Source: Escherichia coli (lineage in GTDB: Bacteria > Pseudomonadota > Gammaproteobacteria > Enterobacterales > Enterobacteriaceae). From it: DNA of 64,000 nucleotides. A model generated the notes under the pieces. That model saw nothing but the letters and a program-made list of their open reading frames with translations. It had not been told where the DNA came from and did no database searches. Positions 3 through 7,348 of this stretch are shown here, piece after piece. The first letter of the stretch is position 1. Every line of letters begins with the position of its first letter. The stretch lies in assembly GCF_003018115.1 (NCBI RefSeq), contig NZ_CP027457.1; one strand, written 5' to 3'. A program made the position numbers and the translations under genes.

Positions 3-272
3 GTGGAGAAAAACATCAAAGTGCCACTGACTGAACCCCAGAAAGCGGGGATCGCGTCATTCTGCCCGTATAACATTGGCCCCGGTAAGTGTTTCCCGTC
101 GACGTTTTATAAACGAATTAATGCAGGCGATCGCCGGGGTGCATGCGAGGCGATTCGCTGGTGGATTAAAGACGGTGGCAGAGACTGCCGTATCCGCTCA
201 AATAACTGTTATGGTCAGGTATCCCGTCGTGACCAGGAGAGCGCGCTGGCGTGCTGGGGTATCGACAGATAA
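3..272 (+). CDS. Phage endolysin (lysozyme-type), C-terminal part; 5' end outside window
   Basis: ORF runs to window edge; C-terminal motifs resemble prophage lysozymes; lies upstream of Rz/Rz1. Confidence 0.6.
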   Translation: MEKNIKVPLTEPQKAGIASFCPYNIGPGKCFPSTFYKRINAGDRRGACEAIRWWIKDGGRDCRIRSNNCYGQVSRRDQESALACWGIDR

Positions 273-546
273 GCAGAATATTTTGCTGAAAAATGACGTT
301 GGCCAACGCGGACGGATAACACGAAATCCTGCGAACTGGCAAAATGTAAGTGAATAACGTCAGGAACATTATTTCACGCAGAGGCACCGTAATGGTGCCT
401 TTGTCATTTCTGCGCTTCGCACAAGCGTAAATAAACCAAAGAACCTTTCAGGATGAGCCCTGGTGGATAACCGGCAGTGGTCTGGTTAACCCTCTTTGGG
501 CTGGTTATTCCTGTGCGCAGGGTTCATCACTAAAAGGAAATAACCG

Positions 547-1119
547 ATGAATATGATGACCGTGCCGTTTCACGGCGATTCTCTTTATGTGGTTAACCAT
601 AACGGCGAACCATACGTTCCCATGAAACCTGTCGTTGAGGGAATGGGTATGACCTGGCAGTCTCAACACCGCAAATTGATGGAGAGATTTAAGACCTGCA
701 TCATCGAAATGATGATTCAGCTCCCCGGTGATACTCAGCGTCGTCTGGTTATCTGTCTTGCTTTACGTAAACTTGCAGGTTGGCTGCAAACCATCAACCC
801 AAATAAAGTTAAACCTGAAATCCGCGACAGAGTCATTCAGTATCAGGAAGAGTGCGACGATGTTCTCTATGAATACTGGACGAAGGGTTTTGTCGTTAAT
901 CCTCGTCAAATGAGCGTGATGGAAGAACTCAATCAGGCTTGCGCTGACATGCAACGGGATAAAAACATTGTCAGTGTGTTTGCTACCGGGCTGAATGAGT
1001 GGAAACAGGTTAAAGCTGCGCATGTATCAAAAATCCGCACATTGATAAACGAAGCGAATCTGCTGATTGATTTTGTCCTAGCTGATACAGGCAAAGGGAA
1101 AATAACAAAGGCGGATTGA
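547..1119 (+). CDS. Phage antirepressor-like regulatory protein (accessory gene between endolysin and spanins)
   Basis: 190-aa ORF; N-terminal region resembles phage antirepressor N-terminal domains; family assignment from recall only. Confidence 0.5.
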   Translation: MNMMTVPFHGDSLYVVNHNGEPYVPMKPVVEGMGMTWQSQHRKLMERFKTCIIEMMIQLPGDTQRRLVICLALRKLAGWLQTINPNKVKPEIRDRVIQYQEECDDVLYEYWTKGFVVNPRQMSVMEELNQACADMQRDKNIVSVFATGLNEWKQVKAAHVSKIRTLINEANLLIDFVLADTGKGKITKAD

Positions 1120-1133
1120 TGGAGAGGTGGCTA

Positions 1134-1268
1134 ATGATATCGGATAAAATCATAACGCTGACAAAGACCATTTGTGTGATTGTCGGCGTTTCATTTTCGC
1201 TAATGATGGTTGCTCTTTTTCTTTCCATAGCCTGGATGGCGTTGAGTTCGGTAGGGCTGGTGGGGTGA
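1134..1268 (+). CDS. Hypothetical small hydrophobic protein (about 44 aa)
   Basis: Short ORF read from sequence with GGAGAGG Shine-Dalgarno-like motif just upstream; single hydrophobic stretch; stop overlaps Rz GTG start; below ORF-track size cut-off. Confidence 0.25.
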
Positions 1269-1708
1269 GCATAAACCGAATTATTTCCGCGTTTACCGTT
1301 ATTCTGCTGGTGGTCTGTGGTGTGCTTAGTCTGGGGCTGAATCATTACCGTGATAACGCCATCGCCTACAAAGAGCAGCGCGATAAAGCCACATCCATCA
1401 TCGATGATATGCAGAAGCGGCAACGTGATGTAGCAGAACTTGACGCCAGATACACAAAGGAGCTTGCTGATGCTAATGCGACTATCGAAAGTCTCCGTGC
1501 TGATGTTTCTGCTGGTCGTAAGCGCCTGCAAGTCGCCGCCACCTGTGCAAAGTCAACGACCGGAGCCAGCAGCATGGGCGATGGAGAAAGCCCAGGACTT
1601 ACAGCAGATGCTGAACTCAATTATTACCGTCTCAGAAGTGGAATCGACAAGATAACCGCGCAGGTTAACTACCTGCAGGAATACATCAGGACGCAATGCC
1701 TGAAATAA
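1265..1708 (+). CDS. Rz: Spanin inner-membrane subunit Rz (GTG start)
   Basis: Internal start of track ORF 1172..1708; product closely resembles lambda Rz (NHYRDNA..YK.QRDK and AGRKRL motifs). Confidence 0.85.
1470..1655 (+). CDS. Rz1: Spanin outer-membrane lipoprotein Rz1, embedded in +1 frame of Rz
   Basis: 61-aa nested ORF with lipobox-like LVVSAC and proline-rich segment, as in lambda Rz1. Confidence 0.7.
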
Positions 1709-1738
1709 TTTTTTTGCAAATCACAAAGTCCATTTAAT

Positions 1739-1765
1739 GAGCCCCGCGATGCGGGGCTTTTTTAT
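1739..1765 (+). terminator. Rho-independent terminator after Rz
   Basis: GC-rich hairpin (gccccgcg..gcggggc) followed by T run. Confidence 0.6.
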
Positions 1766-1910
1766 GTACGCAGTAAACGCGCTTCACACGCGCGACTTAT
1801 GAACACAGAACCTTTCAGGATGACCCTTGAGGATGCCGGTTTGGTGATCGGTGCCTTTCTGTGGGCCGGAATCCTGTGTGACAAGGTTCATCACTAAAAG
1901 GTGTGCACTG

Positions 1911-2453
1911 ATGAATTATCCAACTATCGTTAACGGCATCGATTTTCGAGATCTGATTTTTGTGGCAAACAACGATCCGGTTACAGATTCTTTTATGGTG
2001 GCAAAAGCATTTGGAAAGCTGCCGAAGAACGTAGTTCGTGACATTGAACGAACCATAGAAGCTTGCCCTCCTGGGTTTGATACAAAGCTCAACTTTGAGC
2101 TTTGCTATAAAAACAATGAGTTACAGAATGGTAAGCCGCAAAAATTCTACCGTCTCCGCAAGGATGGGTTGATGCTTTTGGTTATGTCCTACACCAAAAA
2201 AGAAGCAATGCGTATCAAAATTGCTTACATCAACGCATTTAACTGGATGTACGCCATGCTTCAGGTTGGTCATCGTCAATTTGAAGAAGAGAGAAATGCC
2301 GTAATGCTGGAGTACATGAAAGAGAAGGATGTTGCCAGCATGTCAGGTCGCCTGCTAAATCGCTGGGGCAAAATTAAGAAGCCACAGTTGCTGGCTAGAA
2401 TTGAACGCCTTGAACAGCACGGGCAAACCGTAATCCCCGGACTCATCAATTAA
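1911..2453 (+). CDS. Phage regulatory protein, Rha-like
   Basis: Internal Met of track ORF 1851..2453; N-terminal region resembles Rha-family phage regulatory proteins (recall). Confidence 0.55.
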   Translation: MNYPTIVNGIDFRDLIFVANNDPVTDSFMVAKAFGKLPKNVVRDIERTIEACPPGFDTKLNFELCYKNNELQNGKPQKFYRLRKDGLMLLVMSYTKKEAMRIKIAYINAFNWMYAMLQVGHRQFEEERNAVMLEYMKEKDVASMSGRLLNRWGKIKKPQLLARIERLEQHGQTVIPGLIN

Positions 2454-2934
2454 CGGCAGTACCGCGAAACAACCCAAGCCAGTAAGTGGGGAAATAACAC
2501 TGGCAGCCACTGAAAGATGAACCTCCAGCCTTATGGCAAAAAAGATTCTTTGTGGTGGCGGACTGATGGAAAGACATCGGTTATTGCAGAGGCCATTCAA
2601 TGAGTGGTCTCGACAATGGCTTATACCCTACACGGGATAACTTAATTGATATCCTTTTTAACGGATAAAGGCATTTCAGCCTGACATAGCCATGCGCCGT
2701 ATCGTCGCCGTATTCCTGCATTAACAGAGACCGCAGCCCGACAGGGAGACTCCTCTGCGAGAGTGTGCGGGGATAATCAAAAACGATACACACCGGGGTT
2801 TACCGCGTTAACGGAGCGCGGCGTTGTCCCCTCATGGTCGCTGGTCCGGTGCGATGGTGGAAGAAACTGGATTTTGTTGCAACTGATAACCATTATCATT
2901 TTACGGGTCCTTTCCGGCGATCCAGGCCGTTACG

Positions 2935-2946
2935 GGGCGGCGACCT
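2935..2946 (+). other. cosN cohesive-end sequence GGGCGGCGACCT
   Basis: Exact lambda 12-nt cohesive-end sequence read about 175 bp upstream of Nu1 start. Confidence 0.75.
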
Positions 2947-3121
2947 CGCGGGTTTTCGCTATTTATGAAAATTTTCCGGGGAAAATCATGTCGGTACTTC
3001 TCGAACATAACTATTTGTTTTTTCTAATATCGAATCCGTAAAGGTCCGACATGAAAACGCCTGAAAAAGTCATTTTCGGGCACTTTCATGTCGGACCCTG
3101 TATTTGTTGTGAGACTGTTTC

Positions 3122-3641
3122 ATGAAGGTTAATAAAAAGAAACTTGCCGAAATTTTCAACGTGGATCCGCGAACGATTGAACGCTGGCAGTCTCAGGGGC
3201 TCCCTTGCGTCTCCGGAGGTGGTAAGGGCGTTGAATCTGTATTTGATACCGCCACGGCAATTCAGTGGTATGCGCAGAGGGAAGCTGATATCGAAAATGA
3301 AAAACTCCGTAAAGAGGTTGAGGATTACAGGGCTGCCAGCGAGGCAGATCTCCAGCCTGGGACTATTGAGTACGAACGCCATCGACTTACGCGTGCGCAG
3401 GCTGACGCCCAGGAGCTGAAGAATGCCAGAGACTCCGCAGAAGTGGTGGAAACCGCATTCTGTACTTTCGTGCTGTCACGGATCGCAGGTGAAATTGCCA
3501 GTATTCTTGACGGGATCCCTCTCTCAGTACAGCGGCGTTTTCCGGAACTGGAAAACCGACATGTTGATTTCCTGAAACGGGATATTATCAAAGCCATGAA
3601 CAAAGCAGCCGCGCTGGATGAACTGATACCGGGGTTGCTGA

Positions 3642-3667
<26 letters not shown>
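3122..3667 (+). CDS. Nu1: Terminase small subunit
   Basis: 181-aa product near-identical by recall to lambda Nu1. Confidence 0.95.

Positions 3668-7348
<3,681 letters not shown>

Follow-up and report, generated by a model that had tools for sequence, protein, structure and literature searches.

The two regulatory genes that lie between the endolysin and cos in this lambda-like late region raise the question of what they encode and what decides when they are translated. The region is at the beginning of the 64,000-nucleotide stretch of Escherichia coli DNA analysed here (the window), and all its features up to cosN are on the + strand. The window begins within the endolysin gene (lysozyme R), whose 3' part (3..272 in the ORF list) is called 'lysozyme' in identical E. 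coli records. It is followed by ORF1 (547..1119), by orf50 (1116..1268; ORF list and PHROGs), which encodes a predicted membrane protein of 50 aa (phrog_4906), and by Rz (i-spanin; 1265..1708), for which a GTG at 1265 is the likely start. Rz1 (1470..1655), recognized in translation as an o-spanin lipoprotein with the lipobox LVVSAC, is in the +1 frame inside Rz, and the phi24B and P22 records annotate it likewise. Next come ORF2 (1911..2453) and a lambda-type cosN read from the sequence (GGGCGGCGACCT, 2935-2946), which closes the lysis-to-cos segment; Nu1 (3122..3667) and A (3642..5567) lie beyond it. At its start orf50 overlaps the ORF1 stop (ATGA at 1116), and at its end the GTG with which Rz begins (GTGA at 1265); because of these overlaps, ORF1, orf50 and Rz appear to form a translationally coupled chain. 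The initial annotation had placed ORF1 between endolysin and Rz and ORF2 between Rz and cos, both in late-gene direction: the ORF list confirmed coordinates and strand, and the flanking genes and cosN bear out the placement.

Profile searches agreed with the families initially proposed for the two proteins. ORF1 (190 aa), a 'phage antirepressor N-terminal domain-containing protein' (ORF list, Pfam, PHROGs, PGAP), has the antirepressor-type N-terminal domain P22_AR_N (PF10547; Pfam E 1.1e-45, residues 5-114) and falls in phrog_524 'anti-repressor Ant' (5e-106). ORF2 (180 aa from the ATG at 1911), assigned to the Rha family from the same four sources, is indeed Rha-like: it matches Phage_pRha (PF09669; Pfam E 1e-20, residues 25-113) and ORF11CD3 (Pfam E 7.9e-26) and falls in phrog_518 'Rha-like transcriptional regulator' (2e-80). 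It also has the position expected of a rha gene, between Rz/Rz1 and the packaging genes (Rz, ORF2, cos, Nu1 here; 15/Rz1, rha, gene 3 in P22). The antirepressor function attributed to ORF1, by contrast, is unsupported by its domains, since P22_AR_C gave no Pfam match in ORF1 even at E up to 10 and the tblastn alignment with P22 Ant (45% identity) is confined to residues 1-127 of 190. The name 'antirepressor' must thus be considered unproven for ORF1, because the match to P22 Ant covers the N-terminal domain only. The C-terminus of ORF1 has a weak ORF11CD3 match (Pfam E 1.3e-3), and a C-terminal module common to both proteins is, for ORF1, only weakly supported (hhalign probability 11%). Homologues of ORF1 at a coverage of at least 80% occur in 266 phage records. 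Of 279 Stx phages, 126 have been described as having Ant (PMC8136144). The phi24B homologue of ORF1 was labelled 'D_Ant', likely interrupted, by its annotators; the ant of phi24B for which an effect (faster induction) was measured is a separate gene, located before qut (PMC3064807). For the Rha family, no demonstration of antirepressor activity was found in the literature searched. Both proteins seem more likely to be DNA-binding regulators than proven antirepressors.

Are these genes insertions? That word is fair in comparison with lambda and P22, where endolysin and Rz abut (the endolysin-to-Rz gap is 990 bp in the window and P22 genes 19 and 15 overlap), but Stx phages commonly show the arrangement, and their records annotate it already. 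The comparison with close relatives, by which the initial annotation proposed to judge the matter, therefore went partly against it. The order R-ant-Rz-Rha is annotated in POCJ13, phi191 and P13374, and the exact two-gene region, with PGAP names on both genes, is present in 38 of 5426 complete E. coli genomes. The lambda order used as reference (R, Rz/Rz1, then cos) was also oversimplified: in lambda, bor and further ORFs sit between Rz and cos, and the phi24B record has bor in the same interval. Since public annotation already covers both genes and the order in which they stand (POCJ13, phi191, P13374, phi24B and PGAP, with P22 rha in the same slot), the two-gene observation by itself adds nothing new. 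Accessory gene units of late operons are reportedly called morons, in the sense of Juhala and colleagues in 2000. The two genes resemble these in being extra genes between genes that are adjacent in related phages; they differ in that no promoter of their own was predicted, the terminator is 5' and not 3' of the gene, and ORF1 is coupled to orf50/Rz.

The non-coding stretches 273-546 and 1709-1910, absent from the initial annotation, contain what we consider the most interesting feature of the segment. A common module is found there 5' of both genes, made of a terminator, a hairpin (P0), a CA-rich spacer, a long hairpin and two long-range pairings. The structured untranslated leader measures ~130-170 nt, with an A/C-rich linker of 12-14 nt between P0 and the long hairpin. 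The base of the 5' arm of the long hairpin (CCUUU) pairs with the Shine-Dalgarno (SD) sequence. One long-range pairing (PK1) is between the P0 loop and a bulge of 5-6 nt that the 3' strand forms where P1 meets P2; the other (PK2) is between a segment of the apical loop and the spacer just 5' of, and reaching into, the AUG.

Module 1 starts with T0a (380..411), a terminator-like GC hairpin (AGAGGCACC/GGUGCCUUU) with an interrupted U-run, seen in the MFE fold of 376-549. A consensus terminator scan did not flag T0a; a terminator exists at the matching relative position in all four leader types (see below). The hairpin P0a (411..429; UGCGCUU-CGCAC-AAGCGUA), whose loop (418-422) pairs with the bulge at 513-517 to give PK1, is separated from the main hairpin by an A/C-rich single-stranded spacer, J0/1 (430..440). 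The leader core (copy 1, type B; 441..537) has the anti-SD CCUUU at 444-448, a P2 + P(1:2) stem, an apical loop with UGGUUA (483-488), the bulge GUGCG (513-517) and a 3' arm that ends in the SD AAAGG (533-537). In the SD-to-AUG spacer (538..546), UAACCG (541-546) is complementary to the apical-loop UGGUUA (PK2). Module 2 starts after Rz with T0b (1739..1766), an intrinsic terminator (GAGCCCCGC-GAU-GCGGGGCUU) with a U-run. There, the loop of P0b (1778..1794; CGCGC-UUCACAC-GCGCG) provides UCACAC (1784-1789) for pairing with the bulge GUGUGA (1876-1881), which constitutes PK1, and the J0/1 spacer (1795..1807) reads ACUUAUGAACACA. The core (copy 2, type A; 1808..1901) likewise has a 5' arm with the anti-SD and a 3' arm ending in AAAGG (1897-1901); its P2 is AGGA:UCCU, its P(1:2) is CCGG:CCGG, and its apical-loop segment AUCGGUGC (1847-1854) pairs with GCACUGAU (1905..1912), made up of spacer and the initial AU of the start codon, over 8 bp including one G.U (PK2).

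Both conserved arms are present exactly twice in the window, each time 5' of one of the two ORFs, and two matches to the 3' arm were obtained in 0 of 100 shuffles. The leader model R1 scored 78 bits for copy 1 (E 4e-15) and 119 bits for copy 2. MFE folds of both full modules contained the terminator, P0 and the SD-sequestering hairpin (z = -5.1 for copy 1 and -3.0 for the other module); the probability of being unpaired was at most 0.13 for the SD bases of both modules and at most 0.11 for the SD of copy 1. The predicted stability of the hairpin is -37 to -50 kcal/mol, P1 being ~17 bp long within a quasi-continuous helix of ~27 bp interrupted by small bulges.

Comparison of leaders, which belong to at least four sequence types (A-D), gave further evidence for the fold. 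For types A and B modelled with both pseudoknots, 96.2% of cells were paired versus 28-45% with slid partners; the corresponding values for type C were 93.5% and 32-48%, and the type C covariation score was reached by 0 of 500 shuffles, which ignore the relatedness of the sequences. Individual pairs vary as expected of helices, with strong covariation in both PK1 and PK2: pair 39-73 of type C is U-A in 29 and C-G in 11 sequences, PK1 pair 33-130 of types A+B is G-C in 31, A-U in 28, U-A in 15 and unpaired in 1, and PK2 pair 101-159 is U-A in 46, A-U in 15, U-G in 5 and C-G in 1. The arms of types A and B are invariant by search design, so that support for P1 comes from types C and D and from the cross-type alignment, in which 17 of 26 pairs changed on both sides and which, being fitted to the model, leans towards the modelled structure. 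PK1 occurs as at least eight complementary sequence variants across types (0 of 2000 permutations matched the observed value), and the CGCAC/GUGCG complementarity is present in 13 of 13 type B copies; PK2 is retained in every type although its sequences are unrelated between types. An independent test set from other genera contained new compensatory variants of both PK1 (CCGAAA/UUUCGG and CCGCAAU/AUUGCGG) and PK2 (UGCAU/AUGCA, GUACCAA/UUGGUAC and AGCAUCG/UGAUGCU). Comparative covariation has thus been shown to back P0, P1, P(1:2), PK1 and PK2 as predicted pairings. Since G.U pairs are frequent, the leader probably acts as a sense-strand RNA. SD occlusion would be weaker in type C, where the SD falls immediately 3' of P1 and no more than 2-3 additional pairs cover it (helix 1, 82% paired). 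PK2 and a fully formed P1 would be incompatible in a straight rod; either a sharp bend at the P1/P2/PK1 junction would be needed, or PK2 would belong to an alternative conformer.

The leader is not restricted to this locus. It was found in 305 phage records, in ~800 of 5426 E. coli genomes (two counts gave 805 and 724), with up to 8-10 copies per O157-type genome, and at 36 species-representative loci, nearly all from Enterobacterales. In IMG/VR, leaders of types A/B occur in at least 120 contigs, those of type C in at least 120 and those of type D in 115. In the late operons of lambdoid and P22-like phages, the leader stands before many genes that are unrelated to one another, among them P22 rha: the genes 3' of leaders include KilA-N, Rha, P22_AR_N, Ant-like, HNH and TerB-like ones, and Rz, endolysin and Q-like genes are found 5', the Rz of the window being homologous to the Rz cluster upstream of 103 copies. 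The downstream gene differs among loci with identical flanks, and the small ORF orf50 is also present 3' of type B cassettes at five other loci. No Rfam 15 model overlaps the leaders of types A-D (the window was checked to E up to 10), no description of the leader was found in the literature searched, and the leader RNA is unannotated in records of POCJ13/phi24B-type Stx phages. The leader is a well-supported and widespread structured RNA that is new to Rfam 15 and to the literature searched. No trans-acting partner for it was found within the window, and a consensus scan, which cannot exclude a sigma-70-like promoter, found none upstream of either leader.

How might the leader work? We favour, with some confidence though well short of certainty, a reading of the segment as two accessory ('moron'-type) late-operon cassettes, one in the endolysin/Rz gap and the other in the Rz/cos gap, each built of an intrinsic terminator, then the structured untranslated leader acting as a default-off translational gate, then the gene. 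In both products, the N-terminal module would be of a DNA-binding type and belong to the Bro-N/KilA-N/Rha/P22_AR_N group; the C-terminus would be of the ORF11CD3 type, clearly so in ORF2 and weakly in ORF1. Cassette genes would be transcribed only by terminator-resistant (Q-modified) polymerase. Because thermodynamic prediction places the ribosome-binding site in a caging fold, and because the SD and AUG regions both have pairing partners, we infer that the genes are Q-dependent and translationally off by default, so that an opening event would be required for translation. Opening might come about through RNase III-type cleavage of the ~27-bp helix, through invasion of the 5' arm by an RNA or a protein via the single-stranded linker, or through slow standby loading of ribosomes. 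The late expression of both genes suggested in the initial annotation is plausible at the level of transcription only: since a terminator and a predicted RBS-blocking leader precede each gene, late transcription need not mean late translation.

That initial suggestion, in which both genes are functional late antirepressors that target either the repressors carried by resident or superinfecting phages or regulation in the host, now appears unlikely; on such a view, the DNA upstream of the genes would be ordinary. It accords with the P22_AR_N and Rha family matches, with database names such as 'anti-repressor Ant', with the orientation of the genes in the late operon and with the antirepressor-driven cross-induction between prophages that is known in Salmonella; a different phi24B ant does speed induction (PMC3064807). 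However, ORF1 is without the C-terminal half of P22 Ant and its 'D_Ant' homologue in phi24B is annotated as defective, Rha-family proteins have no demonstrated activity of this kind in the literature searched, and inactivating a repressor after commitment to lysis would be of no use to the producing phage. Moreover, the upstream regions are conserved and covarying and therefore are not ordinary DNA. We consider it equally unlikely that the leader is mainly an element of RNA processing or stability, cleaved by an enzyme such as RNase III in the manner of T7 gene boundaries, which would split the cassette mRNA off the late transcript and free the ribosome-binding site as a side effect. The length of the quasi-continuous helix and the position of the modules, beside terminators at gene boundaries of a long operon, would suit such an element, and a cut in P1 would be expected to leave SD and AUG free of the anti-SD arm and the apical loop; yet a simple RNase III site needs neither a covarying pair of pseudoknots nor a pairing with the AUG-proximal spacer. 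There is partial overlap between this explanation and the gate that we propose, for which cleavage is one candidate trigger.

The remaining alternatives concern what else such a block could be. Two pseudoknots, a perfectly paired three-way junction, conserved unpaired stretches and an order-wide spread are typical of riboswitches and small ribozymes, and the core of the pistol ribozyme, a pseudoknot between hairpin loop and internal loop, is similar in kind, a likeness that offers a lead. A sensor of a small molecule or protein, with the pseudoknots as core and the SD helix as expression platform, or a self-cleaving ribozyme of a new class, is nevertheless improbable in our opinion: no Rfam riboswitch or ribozyme model matched at E up to 10, P1 is long and very stable where riboswitches have short switching helices, the sequences of apical loop and bulge are wholly different between types with few universal unpaired nucleotides, and the downstream genes have no common metabolic theme. 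Lambdoid phages have been suggested to carry conserved sequences at gene boundaries, and one leader before many unrelated genes, together with a recombinant (L102) that combines the P0 of type B with a leader of type A, would fit upstream blocks that are only recombination 'boundary' sequences or terminator remnants for cassette swapping. Since homology requires no compensatory changes, no G.U-tolerant pairing and no loop-bulge complementarity across genera, we regard the version of this idea that denies any RNA function as very improbable. Boundary and RNA roles are compatible, and exchange of cassettes via the leader blocks is likely. Least credible, to the point of being nearly negligible, is a small hydrophobic peptide (MTLEDAGLVIGAFLWAGILCDKVHH in copy 2) encoded by the leader and acting by coupling or as a type I toxin. 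Copy 2 does have a frame of 25 codons from a 5'-arm AUG to a UAA overlapping the SD, and the Gifsy-1 IsrK system requires a small upstream ORF (orf45) for coupling (PMC4825925). But of 40 unique type A/B leaders only 10 keep the frame open up to its stop, which argues that it is non-coding; in copy 1 the frame closes after 5 codons, the lengths of leaders (85-95 nt) change in steps that are not multiples of 3, the type C frame has 3 codons, type D lacks an AUG there, and the sequence has no SD at a working distance from the 5'-arm AUG.

Beyond the default-off gate, a bolder extension can be offered tentatively, and we hold it to be doubtful rather than probable. The leader could represent a regulatory RNA class of its own, new to science: either a gate that a particular signal opens (a phage or host RNA, a protein, a nuclease or a small molecule) or a processed trans-acting RNA. 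Its exchangeable loop and target sequences (types A-D and sub-variants) would set specificity groups among co-resident STEC prophages, as c4 does for P1/P7 immunity, and the leader would time or coordinate KilA-N, Rha, Ant-like, HNH and TerB-like genes across Enterobacterales phages. Were the gate to answer a particular signal, it would add a novel level to the control of prophage behaviour in STEC and would be a small natural RNA switch open to reuse. In any case, the leader, whose carriers include the medically important Stx phages, the model phage P22 and prophages throughout the Enterobacterales, offers a testable handle on how temperate phages silence potentially toxic Rha, KilA-N, Ant-like and HNH regulators and when they release them. 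It also bears on the true start of P22 rha and on why cassettes shuffle as units.

At the level of genes, the closest known counterparts are the late regions of Stx and other lambdoid phages (933W, VT2-Sa, phi24B, POCJ13, phi191 and P13374), which have the same gene order, families and orientation. Their annotated genes are 81-88% (ORF1) and 64-99% (ORF2) identical to those described here, and they too have the leader upstream (R1 gives 124 bits for phi24B). There is no essential gene-level difference, except that the window combines both cassettes in the exact form found in few E. coli genomes (38/5426). P22 rha resembles ORF2 in its Phage_pRha domain, its location between Rz and the small terminase/packaging site and its upstream leader; that leader is of type C, whereas the one in the window is of type A. 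According to what Henthorn and Friedman reportedly described in 1995, rha of P22 and phi80 is associated with inhibition of phage growth in IHF-deficient hosts. P22 Ant shares the N-terminal P22_AR_N with ORF1, but is a protein of ~300 aa encoded in the immI region, whereas ORF1 (190 aa, without the P22_AR_C half) is in the lysis cluster. In P22, immI is under the control of Mnt, Arc and the sar antisense RNA; Rfam gave no match to sar RNA in the window.

With respect to mechanism, the leader has something in common with systems in which a late-gene start is hidden until a factor opens it, such as Mu com-mom and lambda cIII (alternative structures, RNase III). By analogy with these and with 'toehold'-type hairpins, the SD/AUG would be held in a stable hairpin with a single-stranded entry stretch on its 5' side; none of them is known to have P0-loop:bulge or apical-loop:spacer pseudoknots. 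The C4/icd-ant (P1, P7) and IsrK-orf45-anrP (Gifsy-1) systems offer another parallel, and in the latter, as here, a structured RNA lies between a terminator and an antirepressor-like gene, 3' of a Q-type antiterminator (PMC4825925). Membership of the leader in the C4/IsrK family was ruled out by searches in both directions. C4 (RF01695), c4-a1b1 (RF03163) and isrK (RF01394; C4 clan CL00128) had no match in the window at the gathering score or at E up to 10, whereas Gifsy-1 as positive control gave 79 bits for isrK, 69 bits for C4 and 48 bits for c4-a1b1 (E 1e-11 to 1e-17); conversely, R1 found no match in Gifsy-1. As a likely difference from C4/IsrK, no short sRNA isoform or conserved small ORF is evident at the leaders, nor, by consensus scan, an own promoter. 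The likeness is therefore one of working and not of membership: through PK2, the leader has a loop complementary to the RBS region of the first downstream gene, and the logic of a long inactive transcript with such loops would be similar in all three; sequence-specific variants could set specificity groups here as well.

The window begins inside a lambda-like prophage, within the gene for endolysin (3..272). Next come ORF1 (547..1119, 190 aa), Rz (1265..1708) with Rz1 inside it (1470..1655), ORF2 (1911..2453, 180 aa), a lambda-type cosN (GGGCGGCGACCT, 2935-2946) and then Nu1 (3122..3667) and A (3642..5567), the genes for terminase. Both ORFs are present as the initial annotation stated, and domain searches back P22_AR_N for ORF1 (E = 1.1e-45; a weak ORF11CD3 match has E = 1.3e-3) and Phage_pRha for ORF2 (E = 1e-20; ORF11CD3, E = 7.9e-26); their PHROGs names are 'anti-repressor Ant' and 'Rha-like transcriptional regulator', respectively. 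Absent from that annotation was orf50, a predicted membrane ORF of 50 aa lying between ORF1 and Rz (1116-1268; phrog_4906, function unassigned). It overlaps the ORF1 stop via ATGA and the Rz start via GTGA, so that ORF1, orf50 and Rz form a coupled chain, and it may be an accessory protein related to lysis. It was also found in five other loci, 3' of cassettes with the same type of leader as ORF1 (type B). The gap between cosN and Nu1 contains a near-perfect long inverted repeat (3038-3102; GGTCCGACATGAAA ... TTTCATGTCGGACC), which for this Nu1 variant probably corresponds to the inverted R-type sites of cosB where terminase binds; it is the source of spurious weak 'MIR8001' matches on both strands. 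The E. coli sRNA C0299 is matched over its full length at 57760-57838 (112 bits), which indicates host chromosome, and not prophage, in the right part of the window.

This gene arrangement is already known, and its members are ordinary accessory genes already in annotations. E. coli O178:H19 strain 2012C-4431 and other STEC chromosomes match segment 200-2500 with 100% identity, and annotations of the order lysozyme-ant-Rz-Rha exist for many phages, among them Shigella phage POCJ13, phi191 and O104:H4 phage P13374. Of 5426 complete E. coli genomes, 38 have the exact two-gene region and 4267 have parts of it; PGAP gives names to both genes in RefSeq. Homologues with at least 80% of the protein covered were found in 266 phage records for ORF1 (mostly Stx phages) and in 238 for ORF2, and a survey reported Ant in 126 of 279 Stx phages (PMC8136144). 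In phi24B the gene between R and Rz is annotated 'D_Ant', similar to the 933W putative anti-repressor and likely interrupted relative to the related P22 gene. Since P22 rha is located between gene 15/Rz1 and the small terminase gene, a Rha gene directly ahead of the packaging site occupies a classical position. What appears to be new resides in the 'intergenic' DNA around the genes, not in the arrangement itself.

P22_AR_N, Phage_pRha, Bro-N and KilA-N were reportedly described by Iyer, Koonin and Aravind (cited in PMC8951638) as shuffled N-terminal DNA-binding domains of viral regulators. Although the initial annotation described the genes correctly, its proposal of a late-acting antirepressor is weakly supported: ORF1 aligns with P22 Ant over residues 1-127 only (45% identity) and the domain search did not find P22_AR_C in it, so the label 'antirepressor' is not established for this protein. 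The phi24B ant that speeds induction is a different gene, located upstream of qut and possessing the C-terminal part of P22 Ant (PMC3064807). Judging from their sequences, ORF1 and ORF2 may share a C-terminal module (motif K-[DN]-[IV]-x-S...L-N-x-W-x-x-[IV]-K), albeit with weak statistics, direct BLASTP (E = 0.17) and profile-profile hhalign of the C-termini (E = 0.0027, probability 11%) being suggestive only. Searches of PDB sequences with both proteins yielded no meaningful relatives.

GAACCTTTCAGGATGA opens and GGTTCATCACTAAAAGG closes the ~95 nt ahead of each ORF. The 64 kb contain exactly two copies of the former, at 441 and 1808, and of the latter, at 521 and 1885 (two matches to the latter in 0 of 100 shuffles). 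These two arms pair together, the base of the helix being formed by CCUUU with the Shine-Dalgarno sequence (SD) AAAGG. Folding of the whole modules (376-549 and 1735-1913) gave a terminator hairpin, a small hairpin, P0, and a long SD-sequestering hairpin (z = -5.1 and -3.0, respectively), in which the predicted unpaired probability of the SD bases is at most 0.13. A scan found no promoter upstream of the leaders, between terminator and gene. With up to 3 mismatches allowed, neither arm nor its complement has a further match in the rest of the 64-kb window; an antisense partner was thus not found there.

A pattern with exact arms retrieved at least 120 contigs from IMG/VR, and blastn detected the leader in 305 phage records (Stx phages, Salmonella P22-like phages, Shigella, Klebsiella). 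A covariance model (R1) built from the collected leader sequences exposed divergent copies, which led to two further sequence types (at least 120 and 115 contigs). We refer to window copy 2 as type A, to window copy 1 as type B, to the kind found with P22 rha as type C and to the kind always ahead of a 143-aa TerB-like gene as type D. The order of elements is identical in all four. From 5' to 3', an intrinsic terminator is followed by a conserved linker (UUUUUURUAYCCGCA-like), hairpin P0 (GC stem, loop of 5-7 nt), an A/C-rich spacer of 12-14 nt, GA(A/G)CC and the 5' arm of helix P1; then come P2 (AGGA:UCCU), P(1:2) (CCGG:CCGG or CCAG:CUGG), an apical loop of ~25 nt and the return strands, where 5-6 nt bulge out on the 3' side between P2 and P1, and finally the 3' arm of P1, which ends in or beside the SD, and a short spacer before the AUG. 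In several type A variants (L001, L007, L014 and others) the A/C-rich spacer (window equivalent 1795-1807) is CACAACACA and so includes CACAACA, published as the consensus of GcvB R1 targets; the window copies have instead ACUUAUGAACACA and AAUAAACCAAA, and, as CACAACA is not kept across the family, the likeness to a GcvB target may be coincidence.

Two pseudoknots complete the fold. In PK1 the P0 loop pairs with the bulge, and the partner sequences co-vary (loop/bulge): UCACAC/GUGUGA, UCUCAC/GUGAGA and UCGCAC/GUGCGA in type A, CGCAC/GUGCG in type B, CCGCA/UGCGG, CCGCAA/UUGCGG and UCGCAU/AUGCGA in type C, and ACGCCC/GGGCGU in type D; the observed match was reached in 0 of 2000 permutations. 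In PK2 a segment of the apical loop pairs with the spacer and the beginning of the start codon. The type A pair is ACCGAU/AUCGGU (spacer/loop), with spacer variants UCCGAU, GCCGAU and CACUGAU and loop variants GUCGGA, GUCGGC and AUCGGUG; type B has UAACCG/UGGUUA, type C has CGCYA/UGGCG or the variants GUACC/GGUAC and AGCAUCA/UGAUGCU, and type D has GUCAC/GUGAC. In the type C alignment (46 sequences), 93.5% of cells were paired versus 32-48% with slid partners, the covariation score was reached in 0 of 500 shuffles, and pair 39-73, for example, is U-A in 29 sequences and C-G in 11. For types A and B together (75 sequences, P0 and both pseudoknots included), the figures were 96.2% versus 28-45%; PK1 pair 33-130 is G-C in 31, A-U in 28 and U-A in 15 with one exception, and PK2 pair 101-159 is U-A in 46, A-U in 15, U-G in 5 and C-G in 1. 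In a cross-type alignment 17 of 26 pairs had changed on both sides, a count that leans towards the structure because the alignment was fitted to R1. Both pseudoknots are also kept in a species-level set of sequences unused in deriving the structure, with new compensatory variants of PK1 (CCGAAA/UUUCGG in Xenorhabdus, CCGCAAU/AUUGCGG in Buttiauxella) and of PK2 (UGCAU/AUGCA in Photorhabdus, GUACCAA/UUGGUAC in Yersinia, AGCAUCG/UGAUGCU in Xenorhabdus). The alternation of A-U with G.U at many positions implies that the fold works only on sense-strand RNA. Natural 'mutants' were encountered as well: leader L037:1169-1275 has no P0-pairing bulge, and L102:2505-2654 has a type B P0 (loop CGCAC) ahead of a type A leader (bulge GUGAGA), PK1 being broken; by its sequence, the latter looks like a recombinant with the junction between P0 and leader.

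Among the 5426 complete E. coli genomes, 805 contain type A, at 2279 places in all, and 724 contain type B, at 2726 places in all and with as many as 10 in one genome; the matches listed showed no annotated RNA feature at these sites. A scan of one genome per species located type C in Xenorhabdus, Photorhabdus, Yersinia, Serratia, Pantoea, Erwinia, Brenneria, Arsenophonus, Citrobacter, Enterobacter, Kluyvera, Kosakonia, Cedecea, Buttiauxella and others. In the genome scan (L380/L361), a match in Arthrobacter was due to chance (no P0, no pseudoknots), and contamination during binning probably explains a 'Candidatus Nanosynbacter' MAG contig whose leader and gene are of the E. coli-phage type. 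The P22 rha CDS as annotated (39575..40180, 201 aa; BK000583.1, locus L352, leader 1035-1148) starts inside the conserved leader. The leader consensus puts the SD and start codon at record position 39643, which gives a protein ~23 aa shorter, and the published start is probably too far upstream.

The gene 3' of the leader is KilA-N-like or Rha-like in 167 loci (one linked cluster); the other kinds in this position are TerB-like genes (90, type D only), HNH endonucleases (33), P22_AR_N (19), another Ant family (11), a second Rha family (8) and single cases of a glycosyltransferase and others. Directly 5' are Rz (103), a DNA methylase (34, type D), endolysin (27), Q-like antiterminators (~24) and other kinds of gene. 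Such varied 3' genes, combined with late-operon 5' neighbours, make the module a portable front end for late-operon accessory genes. In viral contig L011 (3372-5426, minus strand) three leader cassettes of types A, C and A lie in tandem; cassettes can thus stack serially in the same late-operon slot. In L020 (5356-5525) the Rfam sRNA STnc100 (102 bits) lies just 3' of a type D leader and its TerB-like gene and adjoins a cluster of three tRNA genes.

We infer the function of the leader from its demonstrated fold. In lambdoid late operons, Q-modified polymerase is terminator-resistant. The terminator ahead of each module should halt ordinary transcription, and the genes would then be reached mainly by the Q-modified enzyme. 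In the transcript, the 5' arm would mask the SD by pairing and the apical loop would do so for the spacer and AUG; P0 would dock on the bulge and meet P1 and P2 in a fully paired three-way junction. The ribosome-binding site thus seems to be caged, and the leader is expected to keep translation off by default. Candidate ways of opening it are RNase III-like cleavage of the ~27-bp helix, which would detach the apical loop together with the anti-SD arm, entry of an RNA or protein via the single-stranded A/C-rich spacer, and slow standby ribosome loading. In type A the SD and the PK2 strand are joined by only 3-6 nt, which makes PK2 incompatible with a straight, fully formed P1: either the P2 arm would fold back along P1 from the junction or PK2 would be an alternative state. 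A single loop segment is complementary to both the spacer and the 5' strand of a local hairpin, P3; this resemblance of the P3 strand to the spacer would fit a switch that works by strand exchange.

Other identities of the element were considered. An integron attC-like DNA hairpin was rejected because G.U-rich pairing and loop-to-bulge helices point to RNA; moreover, the conserved ends misfit the RYYYAAC/GTTRRRY core and no integrase lies nearby. A small leader peptide was rejected as well: just 10 of 40 unique leaders preserve the frame that it would use, beginning in the 5' arm, so the leader element is not coding. Identity with the AgvB/AsxR anti-sRNAs of EHEC prophages (Tree et al. 2014) was likewise rejected, since these map to the PR' moron site in antisense orientation, measure 51-60 nt and have published sequences unrelated to the leader. 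No Rfam 15 match overlaps the leaders (whole window at gathering score; 250-3150 at E ≤10), those of P22, L011 and L020 were unmatched at E ≤1, and no family matches types A-D; matches elsewhere were at chance level (asX2, MIR8001, rimP, others), besides the distant C0299. A full-text literature search with the conserved arm sequences returned no paper, and keyword searches found no description of the element. It appears that the leader is an undescribed structured RNA family; the comparative support for it is unusually clear, and it is widely distributed, P22 rha and Stx phages included.

Membership of the IsrK/C4 family was also rejected: Rfam isrK, C4 and c4-a1b1 match Gifsy-1 strongly and nothing in the window, and R1 has no match in Gifsy-1. 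Within Gifsy-1 (L353, 34131-34329, minus strand) c4-a1b1 lies over IsrK and C4 over the 'orf45/STnc1160' region, which makes the IsrK-orf45-anrP locus a member of the P1/P7 c4-ant type, in agreement with the likeness to P4-like antisense control remarked on in the paper describing it (PMC4825925). RNA-level gating of phage regulator genes, the kind of control to which the leader would belong, is already known, and the new part would be the leader family itself. By analogy, the nearest known logic is that of the c4 RNA of P1/P7 and of the IsrK-orf45-anrP locus of Gifsy-1, where the mRNA of an antirepressor-like protein, just after a terminator and downstream of a Q-type gene, is translationally inactive and becomes activated through RNA pairing (PMC4825925).
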